From a virus (lineage: Duplodnaviria > Caudoviricetes), in IMG/VR virus record IMGVR_UViG_3300037424_000723, positions 1 through 64,000 of that record: 64,000 nucleotides of DNA. One strand, 5' to 3'. The notes beneath the pieces are model-generated. The model worked only from the letters and a program-made list of their open reading frames with translations. It did not search any database and was not told where the DNA came from. Position 1 is the first letter of the stretch. Each line of letters opens with the position of its first letter. Of this stretch, positions 2,425 to 60,820 are shown piece after piece. A program made the position numbers and the translations under genes.

Positions 2425-2880
2425 GGTAGTGCGGAGACAAGCCGCGACTCCCTCCTCGGTAAGTTGAGGCACAAGCGCCGCCAATTGCACCTTGTCCCAA
2501 TCCTCTACCGCGACAACTCGGTTGGCATCGTCAGGTAATAAGCAGTGAGCTAAAATGTATTGCGCTATGTCGCTGACATACCCTTCATAGCTCTCAATGC
2601 GTAGCTTTTCGTGGGCCAGTGCCGCCGTGTAAGTGTCAAAATCCTGTAATTGATACCACTCAGGTGAGTTGGATTGAATTAGCTCAATAGGCATATCCGG
2701 CTTAGTGGGGGTGTAATCCAGCGCCCGTATGTCATATTCGTCATCAACTATCTGTCCAGTAGCTAGCAGAAGAGAGTACCTATAAATTCCCAAAACTTCA
2801 CGACCAACATTGTCCAACTCAAACAAGCCAAGTCTACGCACTTCGCAAGGTAAATTATCAGATAGGATTACTGTAGGCAT
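2398..2880 (-). CDS. Tail assembly chaperone (gpG-like)
   Basis: Acidic 160 aa ORF between tail tube and tape measure, overlapped by a second-frame ORF. Confidence 0.7.
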   Translation of the reverse strand: MPTVILSDNLPCEVRRLGLFELDNVGREVLGIYRYSLLLATGQIVDDEYDIRALDYTPTKPDMPIELIQSNSPEWYQLQDFDTYTAALAHEKLRIESYEGYVSDIAQYILAHCLLPDDANRVVAVEDWDKVQLAALVPQLTEEGVAACLRTTFQGYIRQT

Positions 2881-2908
2881 TGACTTAAAACCCGAAATAG
2901 CTTATAAT
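2880..2908 (+). promoter_or_regulatory. Sigma70-type promoter of the HNH gene
   Basis: TTGACT-17-TATAAT; the -35 overlaps the start codon of the divergent chaperone gene. Confidence 0.8.
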
Positions 2909-2913
2909 AGGAG

Positions 2914-3022
2914 TGTCACCCAAACTAATAATCACTTATTTTATCCTGCTATCATTTTGATAGATGCCCCGGTATCATTGTTTGGGTGACAACAAACAGT
3001 GAGCGATACCGGGGCATTTTTA
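2914..3022 (+). promoter_or_regulatory. Structured leader/attenuator 1
   Basis: 12-bp IR 2914-2925/2980-2991 interleaved with 13-bp IR 2964-2976/3005-3017, followed by TTTTT. Confidence 0.7.
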
Positions 3023-3035
3023 TTGGAGTAAAACA

Positions 3036-3605
3036 ATGTCTATAAACCTGCCTCGTTGTCTTGATTGTGGAAAAGAACTAAAACATTATAGAAGTAAAAG
3101 ATGTAGATCATGTTCGAGGAAGATACCACTCGATATTAGATTTTGGAGTAAGGTTAATAAAGACGGGCCAATAGTCAGTTATGTTGGTACACCTTGTTGG
3201 ATATGGATAGGCCGATGCCTCAAGGGTAAGCATAAATATGGATACTTTGATCTATGTAAAATAGATAATCGCAACATTCAAATCTATGCCCATAGATTGA
3301 GTTGGGAAATTTCAAATAACCAAACTATTCCTGCGGGCTTATACGTTCTTCATCGTTGTGACAACCCATCTTGCGTTAATCCTAGTCATCTGTTTTTAGG
3401 GACATACAAAGATAACTCGGATGACATGACGCGTAAGGGTAGAGCCGTACATGTACGAGGCGAAAAGCATGGATGTGCAAAACTAACACAAATTCAAGTG
3501 GATGAAATTAGAAGATCATGCGATACTCCAGTACAACTTGCTGAAAAATATGGTGTAATCCCTGATACAATTCATAGAATTATCAAGTATAAGTCTTGGA
3601 AGTAA
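3036..3605 (+). CDS. HNH homing endonuclease (HNH_3 with C-terminal HTH), antisense to the tail operon
   Basis: RFWSKV...CWIW...AHRLSW...VLHRCDNPSCVNPSHLFLGTYKDN...GEKHGCAKLT. Confidence 0.95.
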   Translation: MSINLPRCLDCGKELKHYRSKRCRSCSRKIPLDIRFWSKVNKDGPIVSYVGTPCWIWIGRCLKGKHKYGYFDLCKIDNRNIQIYAHRLSWEISNNQTIPAGLYVLHRCDNPSCVNPSHLFLGTYKDNSDDMTRKGRAVHVRGEKHGCAKLTQIQVDEIRRSCDTPVQLAEKYGVIPDTIHRIIKYKSWK

Positions 3606-12930: not shown

Positions 12931-13654
12931 CTACCCCCACCTGATAAAACGCATTTTCTTGATACGGATGCGCGTAAAATAGCCAATCAATCCCCACCGT
13001 TGCCCCGGCAAACTGTTGGAACCACGTCGCATTGTCTACCCCCTCGTATTCATAACTAGAGGCGAATAGATACTCTTTTGCTGCCACTTGTGACAATAAT
13101 CTTTCTCGCTCTGGTATTGGCATCTCGCTTAGAGAATGTGAAGCGATAAGCAAATCACAGGATTGAGGCAATGAATCCCATTGTATGATACCCTGTCCTT
13201 TTACGTCTTTGGTTGTTTCAGTTAAATAATAACGCTGGATTGTCTCAAGTTCCGGCAAGTCAACGATATGATACAATCCCCTAAACCCTAGCCGGTAAAT
13301 TATCAAGGCCATTGCCCCGTAACCCGCGCCTATCTCGACAATCGTATGTATCTGGGTTATATCCTGCTTAGTCCGGTCTAGCCATTGTTTAAGATGATAA
13401 GCTTGATGGATTAAATTAGTACAGCTTGCATATCCATTCCCGGAATGAAGTGTATCACGACTAAATCCATCCCACCTAACTGGCATCATCCACTTATTCC
13501 AGTCTGTAGCCAATTCGTTATACTCAGGTGTGACATGTGGCGCATTGCCGACAAACATAGTCGCCTGGATCGTTGACCACTGTAGGAAGTTATCTAGGCT
13601 TTCATTAGCGAGATGCGCTCTGAGTGATTGCCGGTAATTATCCCAATTTGTCAT
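12914..13654 (-). CDS. Putative sugar O-methyltransferase
   Basis: TNLIHQAYHL...IVEIGAGYGAMA...IVDLPE...ASHSLSEMP. Confidence 0.75.
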   Translation of the reverse strand: MTNWDNYRQSLRAHLANESLDNFLQWSTIQATMFVGNAPHVTPEYNELATDWNKWMMPVRWDGFSRDTLHSGNGYASCTNLIHQAYHLKQWLDRTKQDITQIHTIVEIGAGYGAMALIIYRLGFRGLYHIVDLPELETIQRYYLTETTKDVKGQGIIQWDSLPQSCDLLIASHSLSEMPIPERERLLSQVAAKEYLFASSYEYEGVDNATWFQQFAGATVGIDWLFYAHPYQENAFYQVGVDGSTK

Positions 13655-14354
13655 TATATCCTAATTTCTCCATCATCCATCCAAATTCATTCCAAATTTG
13701 CTCATTCATTGCAGGCGTAAAATAATTGCGCCAGTTACCGACAATGCCAGTATGTATATTTTGCCGGCGTAGTTCGGCTTCATTGTCACCTATTTCAGCC
13801 TTACGAGTAGCAAAGGATTGACGTTTGATCGCCTGAATAAGCCTGTTATCTTCATACTGTACATCAATTCGTCTCAAGGCGCGTTGGATCCAAAATTGAG
13901 GGTAATCTAATAATCGCTCATAGGTCATTATGGTCATTCTACGATTGCCCAGATAATACCACTTCTCGCAATATTCATCCCACCGACCACAGCCGGCCAC
14001 GTCACCCCGTATCATTCGCTCTAAAAACACCTCATTGCTTACCTGCCAATGATACGCCCCGCTTACGCAGATAGCACGCGGGTCACGCACCAAAAAGATT
14101 ATTTTTTCATCGGTTAATTGTTTCCAGGCTAATTGATGCGCTTGCGGCACAAGCGCCCCCGCATCATCGTCTATTAAAGTGAAATGCCCGCGCCGAATAA
14201 GGTAAGGCCCAGGGCGCTTCCTGGTTACAATCCCAATCTCTGCCGGGGTAGATTCAATTGTAGATGAATTGAGCGCGTCACCCAATAGATTAGTAAGCCA
14301 AGTTGAGCCACTTTTGGGATAGGCGCTTATTATGATCTCAGGTTTTGGCTTAAT
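13638..14354 (-). CDS. PAPS-dependent sulfotransferase with non-canonical start (ATT candidate)
   Basis: In-frame IIISAYPKSGSTWL (5'-PSB) lies upstream of the ORF-track start; RDPRAICVS (3'-PB); GIVGNWRNYFT. Confidence 0.85.
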   Translation of the reverse strand: MKPKPEIIISAYPKSGSTWLTNLLGDALNSSTIESTPAEIGIVTRKRPGPYLIRRGHFTLIDDDAGALVPQAHQLAWKQLTDEKIIFLVRDPRAICVSGAYHWQVSNEVFLERMIRGDVAGCGRWDEYCEKWYYLGNRRMTIMTYERLLDYPQFWIQRALRRIDVQYEDNRLIQAIKRQSFATRKAEIGDNEAELRRQNIHTGIVGNWRNYFTPAMNEQIWNEFGWMMEKLGYNDKLG

Positions 14355-28302: not shown

Positions 28303-30027
28303 TCACATCACCTCTAATTCCTCTTGCTTAGGCGCTGGTTTATCCGGCTTCGCTTCATCAGTTTCAACATCTGCCCCTAGCACATCCTCACTCGCCATAT
28401 CCTGCTCAACTTGCTCTGCTATCTTCGCCCCCTCGTAAAGCGCCTTGAGTGCGATAAGTGCCGCAAACGCCTGTTTAGCAAGATCAAACTCTTTTGGCCG
28501 TTCTGGACTGGCAAGCGTAGCCCGTAACTCAATCTCTTTGTCGGCTATCATCTCCAAAACGAAGTCTTTATCATTCGCCGCCGGATTGAGTATGTCGCCT
28601 ACTGAGATAGCTAACATCTCTTGCATCATTGGGTCAGTTGAGTAAAACAGGTTAAGCACATCCTGCCCATCTGGTAAACGACCATCGGCTAATTCCATAT
28701 CATCGAACTGCTGTTCGGTTATGTCGCCCACATCAAGCGCCTGTAATCGGGTAGTGCGAATATCGGTTATGCCGCTGCCCAGGTTAGCCGTGTAAACCTC
28801 TGAGCGTAATTTTCTAATCTCAGCCTGGCTCCTGTCCTGCTCATCATCCTGATAATCGAATATCACCTCGCAATAGGGTGGTACTGGCTTGCCTAAAACA
28901 TCGGCTAACTTGTCACCCCCTAATAGCGATTTAAGTATCATTATGAGATGGCCTACACCCCCACCCATGCCAGCTACGTGCTGGAACATGGCATCGGCCT
29001 TAGTTGCGCCGGTTGACGTTGCGGGCCATAACCAGCGTGGGGGGATGTTGAGCGCCAGGGCAATGAGGAACATACCCAGAGTGATTGAGCGCTCCTTATC
29101 TTCGCCCATTAGAGCCGCGTGTAAGTCCTGCACATCTATTTCAATAGCGTTAGCCGGGGATGGCTTAACGTCCTTAGAGCCGATAATCACATTCTTGGAA
29201 TAGCGCCTTAATCCCTGATTATCCATAACCAAATCGGCCTGACTAAAAGCGCTGGCTATCTCACTAGCCGTTATGCCGGATTTACCGATAATAATACGAC
29301 GTTTGGGCCGGCTGCCTAATTCCTCTTGTTCTGCTATGGCTATATCCCAGAGGTGTTGAGCCGTGTGTATCATCCGGCTTAAAGCACAAAATCCAACCCC
29401 TCGTAAGTCGGCTATCCAGCTAGGCAGTGAACTGGTCATCATTACCCGTGTATGATGGAAGCGGTAACGCTCACCTGATATATCGGTGTAGATTAGGGGG
29501 TATTCGGGGTTTGACGTGCGCTGGCATCTGAGGCTGTCGAGTATTGCCAAACCGTAAAAGTTCACGCGGGGTTTGCTAAAGTCCTTGCGAGAGCGCCGGG
29601 TTATCGGGTCGAAAACTTTGGGCGCATCTCCTATTTGTTCAATGAATACACCGTTGTCTTGAGTGGTATAAGCCATTACAAAGCGTATTGCCAGCGATGG
29701 AGTCCAGCCTGCGCCATAATCTGAGATTGAGTTGATATTACTTGTCAAGTCACCAGCAACCTTAACGTGACTTTTGATGCTTGGGTCTCTAGCGATAACC
29801 TTAACCGGAATTGAGGCAAACTTAGAGGCAAGCATACTAAGGGCACTTGAGACGTGATCTTCTTTCATCCAGAAACGCGATAGCTCATAATCCCGTGCCT
29901 TTGACCAGTAGGGGGGGATTAACTCACCGGCCCGTAGGAATAGGGGGATAATGTCAAGGCCGGAGGGGTAGTCAAGATGTACCTGAGATTGGGCCGTGTT
30001 TTGTAGGACGCCGTTTAAGTCTGCCAT
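28303..30027 (-). CDS. Portal protein
   Basis: 574 aa immediately after TerL; acidic tail; assigned mainly by synteny. Confidence 0.8.
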   Translation of the reverse strand: MADLNGVLQNTAQSQVHLDYPSGLDIIPLFLRAGELIPPYWSKARDYELSRFWMKEDHVSSALSMLASKFASIPVKVIARDPSIKSHVKVAGDLTSNINSISDYGAGWTPSLAIRFVMAYTTQDNGVFIEQIGDAPKVFDPITRRSRKDFSKPRVNFYGLAILDSLRCQRTSNPEYPLIYTDISGERYRFHHTRVMMTSSLPSWIADLRGVGFCALSRMIHTAQHLWDIAIAEQEELGSRPKRRIIIGKSGITASEIASAFSQADLVMDNQGLRRYSKNVIIGSKDVKPSPANAIEIDVQDLHAALMGEDKERSITLGMFLIALALNIPPRWLWPATSTGATKADAMFQHVAGMGGGVGHLIMILKSLLGGDKLADVLGKPVPPYCEVIFDYQDDEQDRSQAEIRKLRSEVYTANLGSGITDIRTTRLQALDVGDITEQQFDDMELADGRLPDGQDVLNLFYSTDPMMQEMLAISVGDILNPAANDKDFVLEMIADKEIELRATLASPERPKEFDLAKQAFAALIALKALYEGAKIAEQVEQDMASEDVLGADVETDEAKPDKPAPKQEELEVM

Positions 30028-57000: not shown

Positions 57001-57344
57001 TGAATCACGCCCCCGCTTATCACCGTTACCTCTACACCTGGCAATGGCGTTTCCGGCGCCGGCTGCGGCTGCTATGGGCCGGCCACAAGTGCGAGAATTG
57101 CGGCAGTCGCAAGGGCTTACAGGCGCATCACCTAACATATGAGCGCCTTTATCATGAGCGCATATCCGATTTACAAATATTGTGCGAGGTATGTCACCCG
57201 CTAGCAGATGCCCAGCGCAGGTATGACAAAGCACTTCAAACCTATTGCGTCAAGCGATGGGGGCCGATGTGGGTACAAGTTGTTAGGCCAGATGAGGCTA
57301 AGGCGGAATTTGATAAGTGGTTGACAACAAAACAGGAGCAATAG
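57000..57344 (+). CDS. HNH endonuclease
   Basis: CENCGSRKGLQAHHLTY...LQILCEVCH. Confidence 0.92.
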   Translation: MNHAPAYHRYLYTWQWRFRRRLRLLWAGHKCENCGSRKGLQAHHLTYERLYHERISDLQILCEVCHPLADAQRRYDKALQTYCVKRWGPMWVQVVRPDEAKAEFDKWLTTKQEQ

Positions 57345-57346
57345 AA

Positions 57347-57925
57347 ATGAAAACCATCCTCTCTCTTTTTGATTATTCCGGCAATTGGTCTAAGCCATAC
57401 CGGGAGGCTGGTTACAATGTCATTCAGGTAGACATCAAACTTGGTATTGATATTCTCACCTTTGATTATCAGGCCATCCCGGAAATTTACGGAATCCTGT
57501 GCGCTGTGCCTTGCACTGATTTTGCTGTAAGCGGAGCGCGTTGGTTTGCTGAAAAGGATAAGGATGGCAGAACTGAATTGAGCATTAGCCTAGTTAAAAA
57601 GTCTCTTGAGATTATCAATTACTTTAATCCGGTATTTTGGGCATTGGAAAATCCAGTAGGTAGGATAGCCAGATTAGTACCGGAGTTGGGTAAGACGAGT
57701 CTGATTTTTCAGCCATGTGATTATGGCGATGCCTATCGCAAGCGCACATGCTTATGGGGTAAATTTAATCATCCCATCAAAAACCCAGTTGAGCCATTGG
57801 GTATTCGTAAGGGTCAACCCGATGAATGGTACTCTAAAATGGGCGGCAAAAGTGAAAAGACAAAAGCTTATCGCAGTCAAACCCCGTTAAAGTTTGCACA
57901 AGCCTTTTATGAGGCAAATCAATAA
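57347..57925 (+). CDS. Dcm-like C5 cytosine methyltransferase (short phage type)
   Basis: ILSLFDYSG; VPCTDFAVSG; ALENPVG; KRTCLWG; RSQTP. Confidence 0.85.
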   Translation: MKTILSLFDYSGNWSKPYREAGYNVIQVDIKLGIDILTFDYQAIPEIYGILCAVPCTDFAVSGARWFAEKDKDGRTELSISLVKKSLEIINYFNPVFWALENPVGRIARLVPELGKTSLIFQPCDYGDAYRKRTCLWGKFNHPIKNPVEPLGIRKGQPDEWYSKMGGKSEKTKAYRSQTPLKFAQAFYEANQ

Positions 57926-57937
57926 TTCCCCCATAAC

Positions 57938-57971
57938 AAAAATAGAGCCTACTCGTTATTGAGTAGGCTCT
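57938..57971 (-). terminator. Terminator closing the antisense unit
   Basis: 11-bp AGAGCCTACTC/GAGTAGGCTCT stem with a minus-strand T-run. Confidence 0.85.
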
Positions 57972-57989
57972 CCCCAAGAAACCTAAAAC

Positions 57990-58230
57990 CTAGTGATAAA
58001 AAATTACCCCCGGTCAAGCGGGCCGGTACGCTTTTGTCACCTATAGTGGGCTAGGCTACATTAGACAATAACACGCACGTATAAAGAAATCCTCATTCTT
58101 CAACTTAAGTTTTGCCACAGTTTATTAGCCTGTCACCTCGCTTTCTTAGTTTCAAAGGTGAGCGCTTATTACTTCTGACTGTCGCCTGTTTGGGCCGTTG
58201 GTAAGTACGCTCGGTGATACGCACCTATTG
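57990..58230 (-). ncRNA. Candidate structured ncRNA (3' block)
   Basis: ORF-free; stems TCACC/GGTGA, ACAGT/ACTGT, TTGTC/GACAA, GTGCG/CGTAC. Confidence 0.45.
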
Positions 58231-58232
58231 AT

Positions 58233-58359
58233 AAACAGCGGGCCGGATTCGATTCCGGCTTGATCCTTTCACGCGATTCAGGGTTTACGTGTTCCCTCGC
58301 GTCCGTTCAGGTAGCACACGTTCCGATACCTACGATTCCTAACATCGCTGCCGCTGCTT
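58233..58359 (-). ncRNA. tRNA-like RNA (acceptor stem plus T-arm), not a canonical tRNA
   Basis: AGCAGCGG...GCCGG-AATCGAAT-CCGGC-CCGCTGTT; no D-arm, anticodon arm or CCA. Confidence 0.55.
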
Positions 58360-58363
58360 ATTC

Positions 58364-58867
58364 CTAAATATGAGACCAGGTTCTTTTACTTATTACATAG
58401 CATATAGTAACCTGGGTTACATTAAAGATAACCGATAATTCTTTTGATGTATATTTTTTATCCTGATAGAACTTTCTAATTTGCAAGACCTGCTCTGGGT
58501 TTAATTTTGCGGTAGGAGTTTTGTTTCTATTTATAAATTCTGGTATTCTTCTACCTTTTTTGATGGCATCTTGATTATTATCTTTATGAGTACCCAAGAA
58601 TAAATGAGACGGATTGATACATTTGCGATTATCACAGGTATGACAAACTAATATATCAATCGGTAAATCAATATCATTGGCTAAACTATATGCTACCCTT
58701 GAGGCAGTAATAAGATTACCGTCTACCCAAAATCTACCGTATCCTGAATTACCTACTTTTCCTTGCCATTCCCAACATTCATCAGGATTACCAATTTTTA
58801 CTTTAGACCAAAATCTATTTATTTGGTCTTTACTTAATTTAGGTATATTTCTAATTTTTAATTTCAT
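58364..58867 (-). CDS. HNH homing endonuclease (HNH_3)
   Basis: RFWSKVK...CWEWQG...ASRVAY...VCHTCDNRKCINPSHLFLGTHKDN. Confidence 0.96.
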   Translation of the reverse strand: MKLKIRNIPKLSKDQINRFWSKVKIGNPDECWEWQGKVGNSGYGRFWVDGNLITASRVAYSLANDIDLPIDILVCHTCDNRKCINPSHLFLGTHKDNNQDAIKKGRRIPEFINRNKTPTAKLNPEQVLQIRKFYQDKKYTSKELSVIFNVTQVTICYVISKRTWSHI

Positions 58868-58871
58868 TATT

Positions 58872-58975
58872 CACTTTTTAATGGGCCGGTAAATCCAATG
58901 TTTCTAGCCGACGGTTCTCTGGCGCTTTTGCGCCCTTGACATTCTGGCATAGTCGCCAGGGGATTTACCAGCCCA
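58872..58975 (-). promoter_or_regulatory. Branched hairpin immediately upstream of the HNH
   Basis: TGGGCTGGTAAATCC/GGATTTACCGGCCCA outer stem with inner CTGGCG/CGCCAG. Confidence 0.6.
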
Positions 58976-59043
58976 GTCAGCCCTTGCGGGTTGTGACCTT
59001 ATTCATAATCGTTTCAATCCACGCCCCCCGTGTGGGTTGTGAC
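58976..59043 (-). CRISPR. Solitary type I-C-like repeat, 13-nt pseudo-spacer and partial repeat (not an array)
   Basis: GTCACAACCCACACGGGGGGCGTGGATTGAAAC-GATTATGAATAAG-GTCACAACCCGCAAGGGCTGAC. Confidence 0.7.
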
Positions 59044-59241
59044 CGGACTCCAATATGAACGATGTTTTGCCGATTGCCGCCATTCAACACGAGGGCCAAA
59101 ACAATTAAAGCAGATGAATAAAAAACCCCTACTTTCACCCATGTGGCCGTAGGTTTTAATCTGTCTGCCTTCGTTGTTTTGCCCACAATTCCGGCAAACA
59201 TTTATTTGGGTTTTTTCTCGCTCATCAGTTATGACGATCAT
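59014..59241 (-). CDS. Possible 75-aa CxxC-CxxC protein whose stop codon lies inside the repeat
   Basis: AGGG RBS; CRNC...CFNC. Confidence 0.45.
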   Translation of the reverse strand: MIVITDEREKTQINVCRNCGQNNEGRQIKTYGHMGESRGFLFICFNCFGPRVEWRQSAKHRSYWSPVTTHTGGVD

Positions 59242-59329
59242 AATAACCCTGTTGTTAAACTTTGCCAGCGCATGCCGCTTAAGCGTACACTTACCCCTCA
59301 CTGGCTTGTAACCGTTTTTTAGCACTAGG

Positions 59330-59746
59330 CTGGGTACAGTACGGTCAAACCCGCCGTTATTGGTCAGTCCGGTTTATCTGATCTTATCGGAGATAACGGC
59401 CCATTGGCCCTTTCTTCACTTCCCGTTTTTCCTAATATTGCAAGGCGGCCCAGGTACGGGATAAGCGACCTGTATTTTGCCCTAACTCGGCAATACTTCC
59501 CACTTCATATCCGATGAGTTTGTGTGACACTAGGGCCATAATCATTGCGCCGATTACCCCCGGCGTTGGGGTTTGCCTCACTAAACCGTTTAGCCCATAT
59601 AGAGCCTTGCGTCTACCCGTGCGTGATTAGCACGTAGCAAGTTATCACGGTTTATGAAGCTGTTAAGTTGGCTCAATTATTGCCTGTTCTTTTCGGGCGG
59701 TCTATCAATGATGCCATTTCCCTAAAGCGGTCTAATGATTAAGCCT
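59330..59746 (-). ncRNA. Candidate ~400-nt structured ncRNA or leader
   Basis: Follows a promoter; no ORF of 60 aa or more; many hairpins. Confidence 0.5.
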
Positions 59747-59752
59747 GAAAAC

Positions 59753-59781
59753 AGTATAACCGATAATGGATTGAATTGCAA
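59753..59781 (-). promoter_or_regulatory. Promoter of the antisense unit
   Basis: TTGCAA-17-TATACT. Confidence 0.8.
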
Positions 59782-59832
59782 TACTTTTTTGATTAAGAAA
59801 ACTTAAAATTAAGCAAACTCATAAAAATATGC

Positions 59833-59861
59833 TTGCATTTTTAATTCAGGTATGTTAATAT
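59833..59861 (+). promoter_or_regulatory. Divergent rightward promoter
   Basis: TTGCAT-17-TAATAT with extended TG. Confidence 0.6.
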
Positions 59862-59894
59862 TAGGTATCTTAATTTTCGAGGTATCAATGACAT

Positions 59895-59934
59895 CCTCCC
59901 CTGACAAGATGTCAGGGGTTTCCGACAGCCGGAA
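59895..59934 (+). repeat. Two-hairpin motif, copy 1
   Basis: CCTCCCCTGACAAGATGTCAGGGGTTTCCGACAGCCGGAA. Confidence 0.75.
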
Positions 59935-59963
59935 CTTATTTACAAAACGAGGCATAGCGTAGC

Positions 59964-60200
59964 GTGAGCGCAAAATCTTATCCTTATAGTTTGAGCAATA
60001 TTCCCGGCAGTTGGAAGTACTTGCAAACGGCCGAGGAACCAAAGGCCAGTTTCGTTTGTCCAGATTGTGAAGAACGCAAATATCTACTAGATCATAGTGT
60101 CAATAGTGATGGAGCAGTATCCCCTAGCGTAATTTGTGATTGCGATTTTCACGAATGGATTGTCTTGGAAGGATGGAACCCTGATGGCAACGCATTGTGA
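59964..60200 (+). CDS. DUF6527-like Zn-binding protein
   Basis: FVCPDC...DGAVSPSVICDCDFHEWI. Confidence 0.7.
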   Translation: MSAKSYPYSLSNIPGSWKYLQTAEEPKASFVCPDCEERKYLLDHSVNSDGAVSPSVICDCDFHEWIVLEGWNPDGNAL

Positions 60201-60465
60201 TATAGGAATATCTCCAAAGGTGGCCTCAGTCCTGGCTATAAAACCAACGATAGATTATTTGTGTAATGACTACTCAGATGGCGGTAGTAGCATCAGACAA
60301 TCAGATGTTGATTTCGATTGGACATTGCCCGCCGCCGTTGATTGTCCGAAATGTATTAGGGTACGTGATTTGTGGCGAGGTGGGAAAACACTGAAGCAGG
60401 CTCGTAAAATTGTAAAATCATCCCCCGCCCAGCTAGAAGCCGGGATGGGAGCGACCAAACTTTAG
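60184..60465 (+). CDS. Hypothetical protein
   Basis: ATG at 60184; HC...C...CPKC. Confidence 0.55.
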   Translation: MATHCDIGISPKVASVLAIKPTIDYLCNDYSDGGSSIRQSDVDFDWTLPAAVDCPKCIRVRDLWRGGKTLKQARKIVKSSPAQLEAGMGATKL

Positions 60466-60487
60466 AGAGGAGTAGGTAAGCCTTGCT

Positions 60488-60528
60488 CCTCCCCTGAGAA
60501 TATCTCAGGGGTTTCCGCAAGGCTGGAA
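60488..60528 (+). repeat. Two-hairpin motif, copy 2
   Basis: CCTCCCCTGAGAATATCTCAGGGGTTTCCGCAAGGCTGGAA. Confidence 0.75.
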
Positions 60529-60532
60529 ATCT

Positions 60533-60820
60533 ATGAGCAAACGAATTAACGCAGTAGTAACAGATGCTAAGTTTGATTTTATCGAAAGTGTCTCAAAAGG
60601 TAATCGCTCATTTGTTATCAACGAGGCACTGCGGGCGTTATTTGAAATGCAGCGTCTTTTTGGGATAACGACTTGGGGCGACAAATGCTTGATTGCTTAC
60701 GAGATTATGTTGCTCTTTTCCGGCTCTCTCGCCGAGGCACAAGAGGCGCGGCAGGCGCTGGCAAGGCTACAGCAGTTATACCCGAAGAAGTGGCAGGAAT
60801 TGATAAAGGATGGTAAATGA
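60533..60820 (+). CDS. Ribbon-helix-helix DNA-binding protein
   Basis: KRINAVVTDAKFDFIE...NRSFVINEAL. Confidence 0.75.
   Translation: MSKRINAVVTDAKFDFIESVSKGNRSFVINEALRALFEMQRLFGITTWGDKCLIAYEIMLLFSGSLAEAQEARQALARLQQLYPKKWQELIKDGK

Follow-up and report, generated by a model that had tools for sequence, protein, structure and literature searches.

A Conserved Minus-Strand Noncoding Unit of Putative RNA Modules with Apparently Inserted Zinc-Ribbon and HNH Genes in a Phage Genome

The Minus-Strand Unit

The stretch of DNA analyzed here, called the window, covers the initial 64 kb of a virus record from sediment in IMG/VR (IMGVR_UViG_3300037424_000723; 77,330 bp), which carries direct terminal repeats. 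Positions 57938–59781 of the window are occupied by a minus-strand unit of 1.84 kb, which extends from a putative promoter to a putative terminator. About 730 nt of the unit are protein-coding, in a zinc-ribbon gene and an HNH endonuclease gene. The unit is flanked on one side by a plus-strand replication module (primase-like, HNH, initiator, DnaB-like, HNH, and cytosine-methylase-like genes) and, on the other side, by a series of small plus-strand open reading frames (ORFs). An earlier note on this DNA described the locus as an antisense transcription unit, made mostly of structured RNA around an HNH gene. The orientation opposite to the flanks agrees with the strand composition, which flips across 58000–59700, where the minus strand is purine-rich.

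The noncoding parts contain no ORF longer than 64 amino acids (aa; stop to stop), all three types of stop codons are present, and protein homology was looked for in every frame without a trace. An alternative genetic code or a decayed long ORF was considered and dropped, because all three kinds of stop codons are scattered through every frame.

A homologous unit of about 1.3 kb is present in a sister phage, IMGVR_UViG_3300037484_000573 (48.8 kb; hereafter G001). It is encoded on the same strand, with the same type of promoter and the same terminator. The features of the window unit are listed below from the promoter to the terminator (z is the folding score relative to shuffled sequence, and MFE is minimum free energy).

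59753–59781, minus strand: sigma-70-like promoter TTGCAA-17-TATACT, found by scanning and unique in the window
59670–59745, minus strand: H1, stem-loop that begins near the 5' end predicted for the RNA (z −1.3; plus strand −0.8)
59545–59660, minus strand: H2, three-way junction (59575–59660), and hairpin H3 (59548–59565); 97% identical to G001
59405–59538, minus strand: stem region of 134 nt (z −1.5; plus strand −1.3)
59307–59544, minus strand: variable linker of 238 nt (z −1.5), with 79 unrelated nt in G001
59250–59306, minus strand: block C, hairpin just upstream of the zinc-ribbon gene; 14 of 14 predicted pairs invariant in G001
59014–59238, minus strand: zinc-ribbon protein gene, 74 aa, with ATG at 59238; insertion relative to G001
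59011–59043, minus strand: R1, type I-C-like CRISPR repeat that overlaps the 3' end of the zinc-ribbon gene (last 9 codons and stop codon)
58976–58998, minus strand: R2, GNRA (GCAA) hairpin; a direct repeat of the first 11 nt of R1, diverging thereafter
58883–58974, minus strand: large hairpin, closed by a stem of 14 bp around an interior of 64 nt (z −5.7; plus strand −4.2)
58364–58876, minus strand: HNH_3 endonuclease ORF (58364–58867) with a leader of about 9 nt; Pfam and PHROG matches
58231–58361, minus strand: M5, multibranch RNA, four hairpins closed by a stem of 11 bp; 89% identical to G001 (z −2.5; plus strand −2.0)
58033–58156, minus strand: M6, conserved, without supported structure; 79% identical to G001, MFE pairs lost
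57944–57971, minus strand: intrinsic terminator, an 11-bp stem followed by a U-run

Conservation in the Sister Phage

G001 was found by an exact-pattern scan with hairpin H3. It originates from a Joint Genome Institute (JGI) sample that also holds an identical copy (L086) of the window phage. The two units share five noncoding blocks:

57928–57971 (G001 13015–13059): terminator block, 93% identity, 34 nt identical
58033–58156 (G001 13367–13497): M6 block, 79% identity
58225–58364 (G001 13646–13784): M5 block, 89% identity
59250–59306 (G001 14020–14075): block C, 95% identity
59545–59651 (G001 14155–14261): H2/H3 block, 97% identity

These blocks are thus 79–97% identical, in comparison with 77–79% for most of the alignable flanking coding sequence; the exception is one 76-nt stretch with 86% identity. 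The segments between the blocks are either unalignable or unequal in length (61 vs 307, 68 vs 148, 885 vs 235, and 238 vs 79 nt in the window and G001, respectively). The identity therefore alternates at a scale of about 100 nt between 89–97% and unalignable.

The zinc-ribbon gene, the repeat R1, the HNH gene, and the methylase gene are all absent from G001. No convincing ORF was found in the 1.5-kb interval of G001. Two plus-strand frames there, of 82 and 97 aa, are not intact in the window phage, and a 1-nt indel lies inside M5. At the site of the HNH gene, G001 shows a clean empty site, where the 3' arm of the large hairpin is joined through an A-rich spacer of 7 nt to the start of M5. Here, the window phage contains an insertion of about 510 nt, the HNH ORF plus about 9 nt. 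Because the sister phage has the unit without any genes, the HNH and zinc-ribbon genes are considered to be later insertions.

The cytosine-methylase-like gene (57316–57927) borders the unit. G001 has about 60 nt between the end of the upstream HNH gene and the shared terminator block, and the methylase gene is therefore another presence/absence insertion. Inside the 307-nt linker specific to G001, a 17-codon ORF with a strong AGGAGG ribosome-binding site is seen on the minus strand (L119:640–700, corresponding to G001 about 13295–13355).

The record sequence is also present in sediment metagenomes; among public runs, it was found in two sediment DNA runs and in no RNA run. In both runs, variant contigs join 59306 to 59541, which corresponds to an indel of 234 nt in the linker. 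A second population-variant join, 59574 to 60732, is seen in one sediment run. In the second run, the dominant strain's contig ends at the outer boundary of H2 (59574), and the loose end found at 59594 runs on into unlike sequence. The promoter-proximal part of the unit may be a swappable cassette.

Promoter and Terminator

The −35 and −10 hexamers match at 9 of 12 positions. Seven such sites were found against 6.6 expected from shuffled sequence, and the match alone means little, because shuffled sequence yields equally many sites. Yet G001 and a third phage contig, L092, share the −10 hexamer and the 3' half of the spacer (ATCGGTTATA) with the window phage, at the same position. The promoter is TAGACA-17-TATAGT in G001 and TTGACA-17-TATACT in L092. 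Both have the end of the spacer and the −10 core as in the window phage, and the initial transcribed sequences are similar. The recurrence of the core in place thus upholds the promoter proposed in the earlier note, even with hexamers at the chance level. In L092, the promoter (L092:3213–3266, a Logan contig) follows a methylase homolog and a ribbon-helix-helix gene, and is on the strand of the methylase. The first 18 transcribed nucleotides are similar to those of the window unit, and the contig stops 21 nt past the −10 hexamer.

The terminator is likewise upheld, with a stretch of 34 nt that is 100% identical in G001. An 11-mer (minus strand CCGGGGGTAAT) is identical at 58003–58013 and 59553–59563, where it forms the loop side of H3. 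The copy at 58003–58013 is part of a weak hairpin with a U-run after it; this possible second terminator precedes the main one by about 30 nt.

A possible operator, an AT-rich imperfect inverted repeat of 35 nt, is located upstream of the promoter at 59805–59877, in the divergent promoter region that separates the unit from the plus-strand genes.

RNA Folding and Covariation

In 150-nt sliding windows over 16 kb of both strands, the region is like the rest of the phage except for a few hairpins. The 893-nt upstream part folds with a z of −6 (plus strand −3.7), in comparison with +0.9 and −1.9 for control stretches of the same length. By arithmetic from the per-element z scores, this value is about accounted for by a few strong hairpins. 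Since both the sliding windows and the per-element scores stand out at a few hairpins only, the description of the unit as mostly structured RNA is overstated. Most of the proposed hairpins are indistinguishable from shuffled sequence. The branched hairpin reported upstream of the HNH gene corresponds to the large hairpin at 58883–58974, and its 14-bp stem and strong z score bear out that part of the description.

The closing stem of H1 is kept in G001 with a change from U.G to C-G, and its interior differs. H2 (z −3.9; plus strand −2.8) has two substitutions in its inner stem, G.U to G-C and U.G to U-A. The outer 8 bp of the large hairpin are kept with a U.G to C-G change, and its interior is replaced. 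All of these stem changes in H1, H2, and the large hairpin are switches from G.U to Watson-Crick pairs, and the pairing is preserved on the minus strand only. Judged from the alignment, the large hairpin upstream of the HNH gene is part of the RNA unit and lies outside the endonuclease cassette.

Covariation is seen in M5. Among the 38 pairs predicted from the window sequence alone, 32 are unchanged in G001. Two adjacent pairs are changed at both nucleotides and are still paired, and a third behaves likewise if a single gap is moved by one base. Two further pairs are switches between A-U and G.U, and one terminal pair is broken. When the pairing partners are slid as a control, pairing falls from 98.7% to 33–38% and all of the double changes are lost. 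In a simulation with 15 random, uniformly distributed substitutions, 0.24% of trials gave two or more compensated pairs and no more than two broken ones (p ~0.002). The earlier note had named the lack of covariation in homologs as evidence against the unit. M5 covaries, with compensatory changes present, and this objection therefore does not apply.

For M6, the stretches 58100–58230 and 57985–58110 fold with z of −0.7 and −0.1 on the minus strand. A long-range 9-bp pairing in the MFE structure, 59395–59403 with 58191–58199, was dropped; one of its arms is in a segment absent from G001.

The HNH Gene

The HNH ORF at 58364–58867, already reported in the earlier note, is assigned to known endonuclease families. 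It matches HNH_3 with 26.1 bits (cutoff 24.8) and PHROG 1872 with E = 4e-29, in addition to a sub-threshold zinc-loop match. The protein is 167 aa long and has a helix-turn-helix-like C-terminal tail. Its closest relatives among billions of proteins are only 40–47% identical. In 80 loci with HNH homologs, no similarity to the sequence flanking the gene in the unit was found.

Two characteristics of a free-standing HNH homing endonuclease are found here: the catalytic domain and a presence/absence polymorphism with a precise empty site. The occupied and empty alleles co-occur in one community. In its behavior, the gene resembles a free-standing homing endonuclease gene, which appears to have become lodged between two RNA modules. 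It probably rides on the transcript of the unit, because no promoter of its own is visible. The earlier note described structured RNA around the HNH, and an organizing role of the HNH is not supported: G001 has a natural empty site where this compact insertion lies in the window phage.

The window contains at least four clear HNH-domain genes, in addition to two sub-threshold HNH-like matches. One of them, an HNH_3 gene at 3036–3605, is 36% identical to the HNH at 58364–58867 and has its own promoter, TTGACT-17-TATAAT. Upstream of it, at 2880–3035, there are two interleaved perfect stems of 12 and 13 bp. The second of these stems is attenuator-like, with a T-run just before the start codon.

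The Zinc-Ribbon Gene and the CRISPR-Like Repeat

The ORF at 59014–59238, noted previously as a possible zinc-finger ORF, is a real gene. Its family contains 57 cluster representatives of 53–140 aa (best E = 4.5e-15), in addition to three local matches in much longer proteins. Four cysteines (CxxC...CxxC) are invariant, and the AlphaFold model has a predicted local distance difference test (pLDDT) score of 91. No Pfam family and no sequence or fold match in PDB were found, and the only PHROG match is marginal and local (E = 0.003, to a family with no assigned function). The homologs in other phages are located in ordinary small-gene arrays, and in their contexts (L087–L091) there are no shared flanks and no repeat.

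R1 overlaps the end of this gene. It starts with GTC, and its last 14 nt (GCGTGGATTGAAAC) match exactly the CRISPR repeats published for Xanthomonas, Legionella, and Pseudomonas, of which the Legionella repeat is type I-C. The CRISPR-like repeat of the earlier note is thus confirmed at 59011–59043 by an exact type I-C 3' end. The 14-nt motif occurs once in the window, and R1 is absent from 114 other loci searched. An exact search for the R1 repeat in 185,579 species genomes gave no match. From a reading of the sequence, 3–4 of the usual 6 pairs of the repeat stem are possible.

R2 begins 13 nt after R1, in a layout that would give one RNA resembling a CRISPR RNA (crRNA). In G001, the GCAA loop of R2 is kept on a compensated and lengthened stem. 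The anti-CRISPR reading of R1 may be regarded as a lead, short of a result.

Searches for Known RNA Families and Further Homologs

With Rfam at E values up to 10, no match was found in either the window phage or G001, including GOLLD, ROOL, HEARO, and tRNA. The comparison with GOLLD, ROOL, and HEARO suggested in the earlier note thus gives no family match, and GOLLD or ROOL membership was rejected on the lack of a covariance-model match in both phages. HEARO, or an IscB-type omega-RNA, was rejected likewise; the protein here is a 167-aa HNH_3 protein in which no RuvC domain was detected. A group I or group II intron was also rejected: there is no Rfam intron match, there are no minus-strand exon ORFs, and the HNH-free allele in G001 keeps the flanking RNA.

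The region just downstream of the HNH gene had been described as a tRNA-like element. ARAGORN detects no tRNA or transfer-messenger RNA (tmRNA) at default settings, and only junk at relaxed thresholds. M5 was rejected as a tRNA, a tmRNA, or a tRNA-like substrate of RNase P, given its 11-bp closing stem, its 6- or 8-nt T-like loop, and the lack of CCA, as against the 7-bp acceptor stem, 5-bp T stem, and 7-nt T loop of a tRNA cloverleaf. It is a conserved multibranch RNA instead.

A blastn search of INPHARED phages with the noncoding parts returned HNH fragments only. Among relatives of the methylase (L083–L085, L092, L093, L112–L115) and a relative of DnaB (L082), the unit is absent, and only the promoter motif is seen, in L092. 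A 21-nt match to L082 is considered to be a chance match, because it lies inside a 413-aa ORF there. Exact-pattern scans of viral contigs, metagenome contigs (18 chance matches), and genome contigs revealed no further homologs. When 360 kb of loci and four virus records were searched with a covariance model of M5, the only copies detected were the two already known.

The phage has a G+C content of 45% and zero HIP1 sites. A 574-aa ORF at 28303–30027 gave no match in a tblastn search against deposited phage genomes.

Interpretation

The homology of the two units, their block structure, the empty sites, and the covariation in one module are direct observations. The most probable explanation, held with some confidence rather than with certainty, is that the locus is a conserved noncoding minus-strand unit of separately folding modules, into which the HNH and zinc-ribbon genes were inserted later. 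The unit would be transcribed from the promoter at 59781–59753 to the terminator at 57971–57944. The modules, connected by linkers that change fast, would be the 5' stem-loop, the three-way junction with its hairpin, block C, the GNRA hairpin with the large hairpin, and the multibranch element. Independent folding and action of the modules are probable, because insertions of about 250–510 nt and the full replacement of linkers are tolerated between the blocks. They could act as independent small structured RNAs, cut apart or not. The zinc-ribbon gene would bring a type I-C CRISPR-repeat mimic at its 3' end, and the compact free-standing HNH homing-type endonuclease would be inserted between modules. 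Parts of the earlier interpretation survive here, namely one antisense unit from promoter to terminator with a conserved noncoding core, and several modules in preference to one large RNA, given the tolerated insertions and linker replacement. The tRNA-like assignment and an organizing role of the HNH do not survive.

It can be speculated, as a tentative guess within this explanation, that the modules are RNA decoys or regulators acting against host defence, and that the I-C mimic is a module engaging host type I-C Cas proteins. A bolder and more doubtful idea is that the locus is of a new kind, an RNA-only operon. Each module would be a decoy or regulator against a host system, the I-C mimic would be interchangeable, and modules and passenger genes would be swapped between conserved blocks. 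With respect to function, independent regulatory or anti-defence RNAs rank first, followed by an origin (DNA-level or dependent on transcription), an mRNA whose untranslated regions (UTRs) are long, a nonfunctional mosaic, and a single large RNA.

Several points weigh against the modular noncoding unit. The unit is carried by two genomes only, both from one sample, and recent recombination could inflate the identity of the blocks. Folding clearly stronger than in shuffled controls is limited to 3–4 hairpins, and most of the RNA shows no such excess. The predicted pairs of M6 are not kept in G001. The M5 structure is derived from one of two sequences, the simulation assumes uniform substitution, and the shuffle control is uninformative with two sequences (132/500). 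For the anti-defence guess, the 13 nt between R1 and R2 look ancestral rather than selected as a guide, and appear homologous to the sequence preceding R2 in G001. This guess rests on one motif, which is absent from G001 and overlaps a coding tail, and it assumes that the host carries a type I-C system.

The unit could be considered to act at the level of DNA, for example as a replication origin that transcription may activate or prime, with the conservation reflecting protein-binding sites and DNA hairpins. It is directly downstream of the replication module with its initiator, DnaB, and HNH genes, its conserved noncoding blocks alternate with variable spacers, and its strongest hairpins fold well on the plus strand too (z −4.2 and −2.8). 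This is nevertheless unlikely: no iteron family is conserved between the window phage and G001, stem changes pass through G.U pairs, which are mismatches on the opposite strand, and the unit is framed by a conserved promoter and a U-tract terminator. Slightly less likely again is an ordinary phage moron, that is, a two-gene mRNA for the zinc-ribbon and HNH proteins with long UTRs, whose hairpins tune stability or translation. Both ORFs are intact between one promoter and one terminator, and the other HNH gene (3036–3605) has its own promoter and a structured leader; G001, however, keeps the promoter, modules, and terminator without either ORF, and the noncoding blocks are better conserved than the neighboring genes. 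Decayed genes or junk, with the similarity to G001 explained as a recombination mosaic of co-occurring phages without any RNA function, are improbable. Phage mosaicism is common, both phages are from the same sample, and much of the sequence is without a significant fold. Such an origin does not fit the alternation of 89–97% identity with unalignable sequence at the 100-nt scale, the compensatory changes in M5, or the lack of protein-homology traces in any frame.

The modular noncoding unit has also to be compared with the two possibilities raised in the earlier note. In one, small RNAs are released from the transcript by two enzymes, Cas5d cutting the I-C repeat and RNase P a tRNA-like fold. 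The exact I-C 3' handle, followed 13 nt later by a repeat-like stable hairpin, has the layout of a one-unit mini-array, and viral mini-arrays with short spacers, I-C types included, are described (bioRxiv 10.1101/2024.10.29.618823). M5, on the other hand, does not have tRNA geometry and R1 is missing from G001. The 13-nt spacer, ancestral in appearance, is shorter than the median of 19 nt reported for the spacers of viral type I-F crRNA-like RNAs, and the exact search of species genomes found no host with the R1 repeat. This dicing is about as improbable as the junk origin. In the other, which is the least probable of all, the whole unit folds globally into one large noncoding RNA, comparable to GOLLD or ROOL, and a nuclease gene sits in a loop. 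Its size is near that of known large phage RNAs and the 893-nt upstream part has a z of −6. Rfam at E up to 10 gives no match, the insertions of about 250–510 nt and linker replacement are tolerated, and the sole notable long-range MFE pairing has an arm in a segment absent from G001; each of these counts against a single large RNA.

Comparison with Known Systems

The unit matches no Rfam RNA family. Phage genomes are tightly packed, and 1.3 kb of conserved gene-free sequence from promoter to terminator is therefore unusual. If the modules are functional RNAs, a multi-module noncoding locus would join the short list of large phage RNAs, and such a locus would be linked to RNA-based anti-CRISPR elements.

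GOLLD and ROOL resemble the unit in being long phage noncoding transcripts (the transcript here is predicted), and HEARO resembles it in having an HNH ORF adjoining a structured RNA. The unit differs from them in the lack of a covariance-model match, in being modular rather than globally folded, and in having a 167-aa HNH_3 protein that is dispensable for the unit. The C4 RNA of P1 and the CI RNA of P4, phage immunity RNAs that are processed from precursors, are structured small RNAs within a longer leftward transcript that may carry ORFs. The unit is not known to match these in sequence or structure, and no target complementarity was identified.

Racr (solitary repeat units) and Cracr are similar to R1 in that a CRISPR repeat look-alike is present in a phage without cas genes. 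For R1 as for RacrIC1 with AcrIC5, the repeat comes immediately after a small phage gene on one transcript, a predicted one in the case of R1; for RacrIC1, one bicistronic RNA holds a small anti-CRISPR gene and, 11 nt downstream of it, an I-C repeat mimic (PMC10651486). The Cracr mini-arrays share the order of a repeat, a short spacer, and a partial repeat (bioRxiv 10.1101/2024.10.29.618823). In contrast to Racr and Cracr, R1 overlaps a coding tail and stop codon, its stem is weakened, its spacer is 13 nt and apparently ancestral, and it is absent from the sister phage. It is also a small part of a unit of about 1.3 kb, in which the other modules have no likeness to CRISPR.

The closest parallel for the HNH gene is seen in the free-standing HNH genes of phages (T4-type; reviewed in PMC2988022). 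The shared characteristics are a compact ORF, the lack of close relatives, a noncoding insertion spot, occupied and empty alleles in one community, and several other HNH genes in the phage. The difference is that the insertion of this putative homing gene is inside a noncoding RNA unit, not between protein genes. Since the alleles with and without the HNH gene come from one community, homing into a noncoding RNA gene is directly testable.

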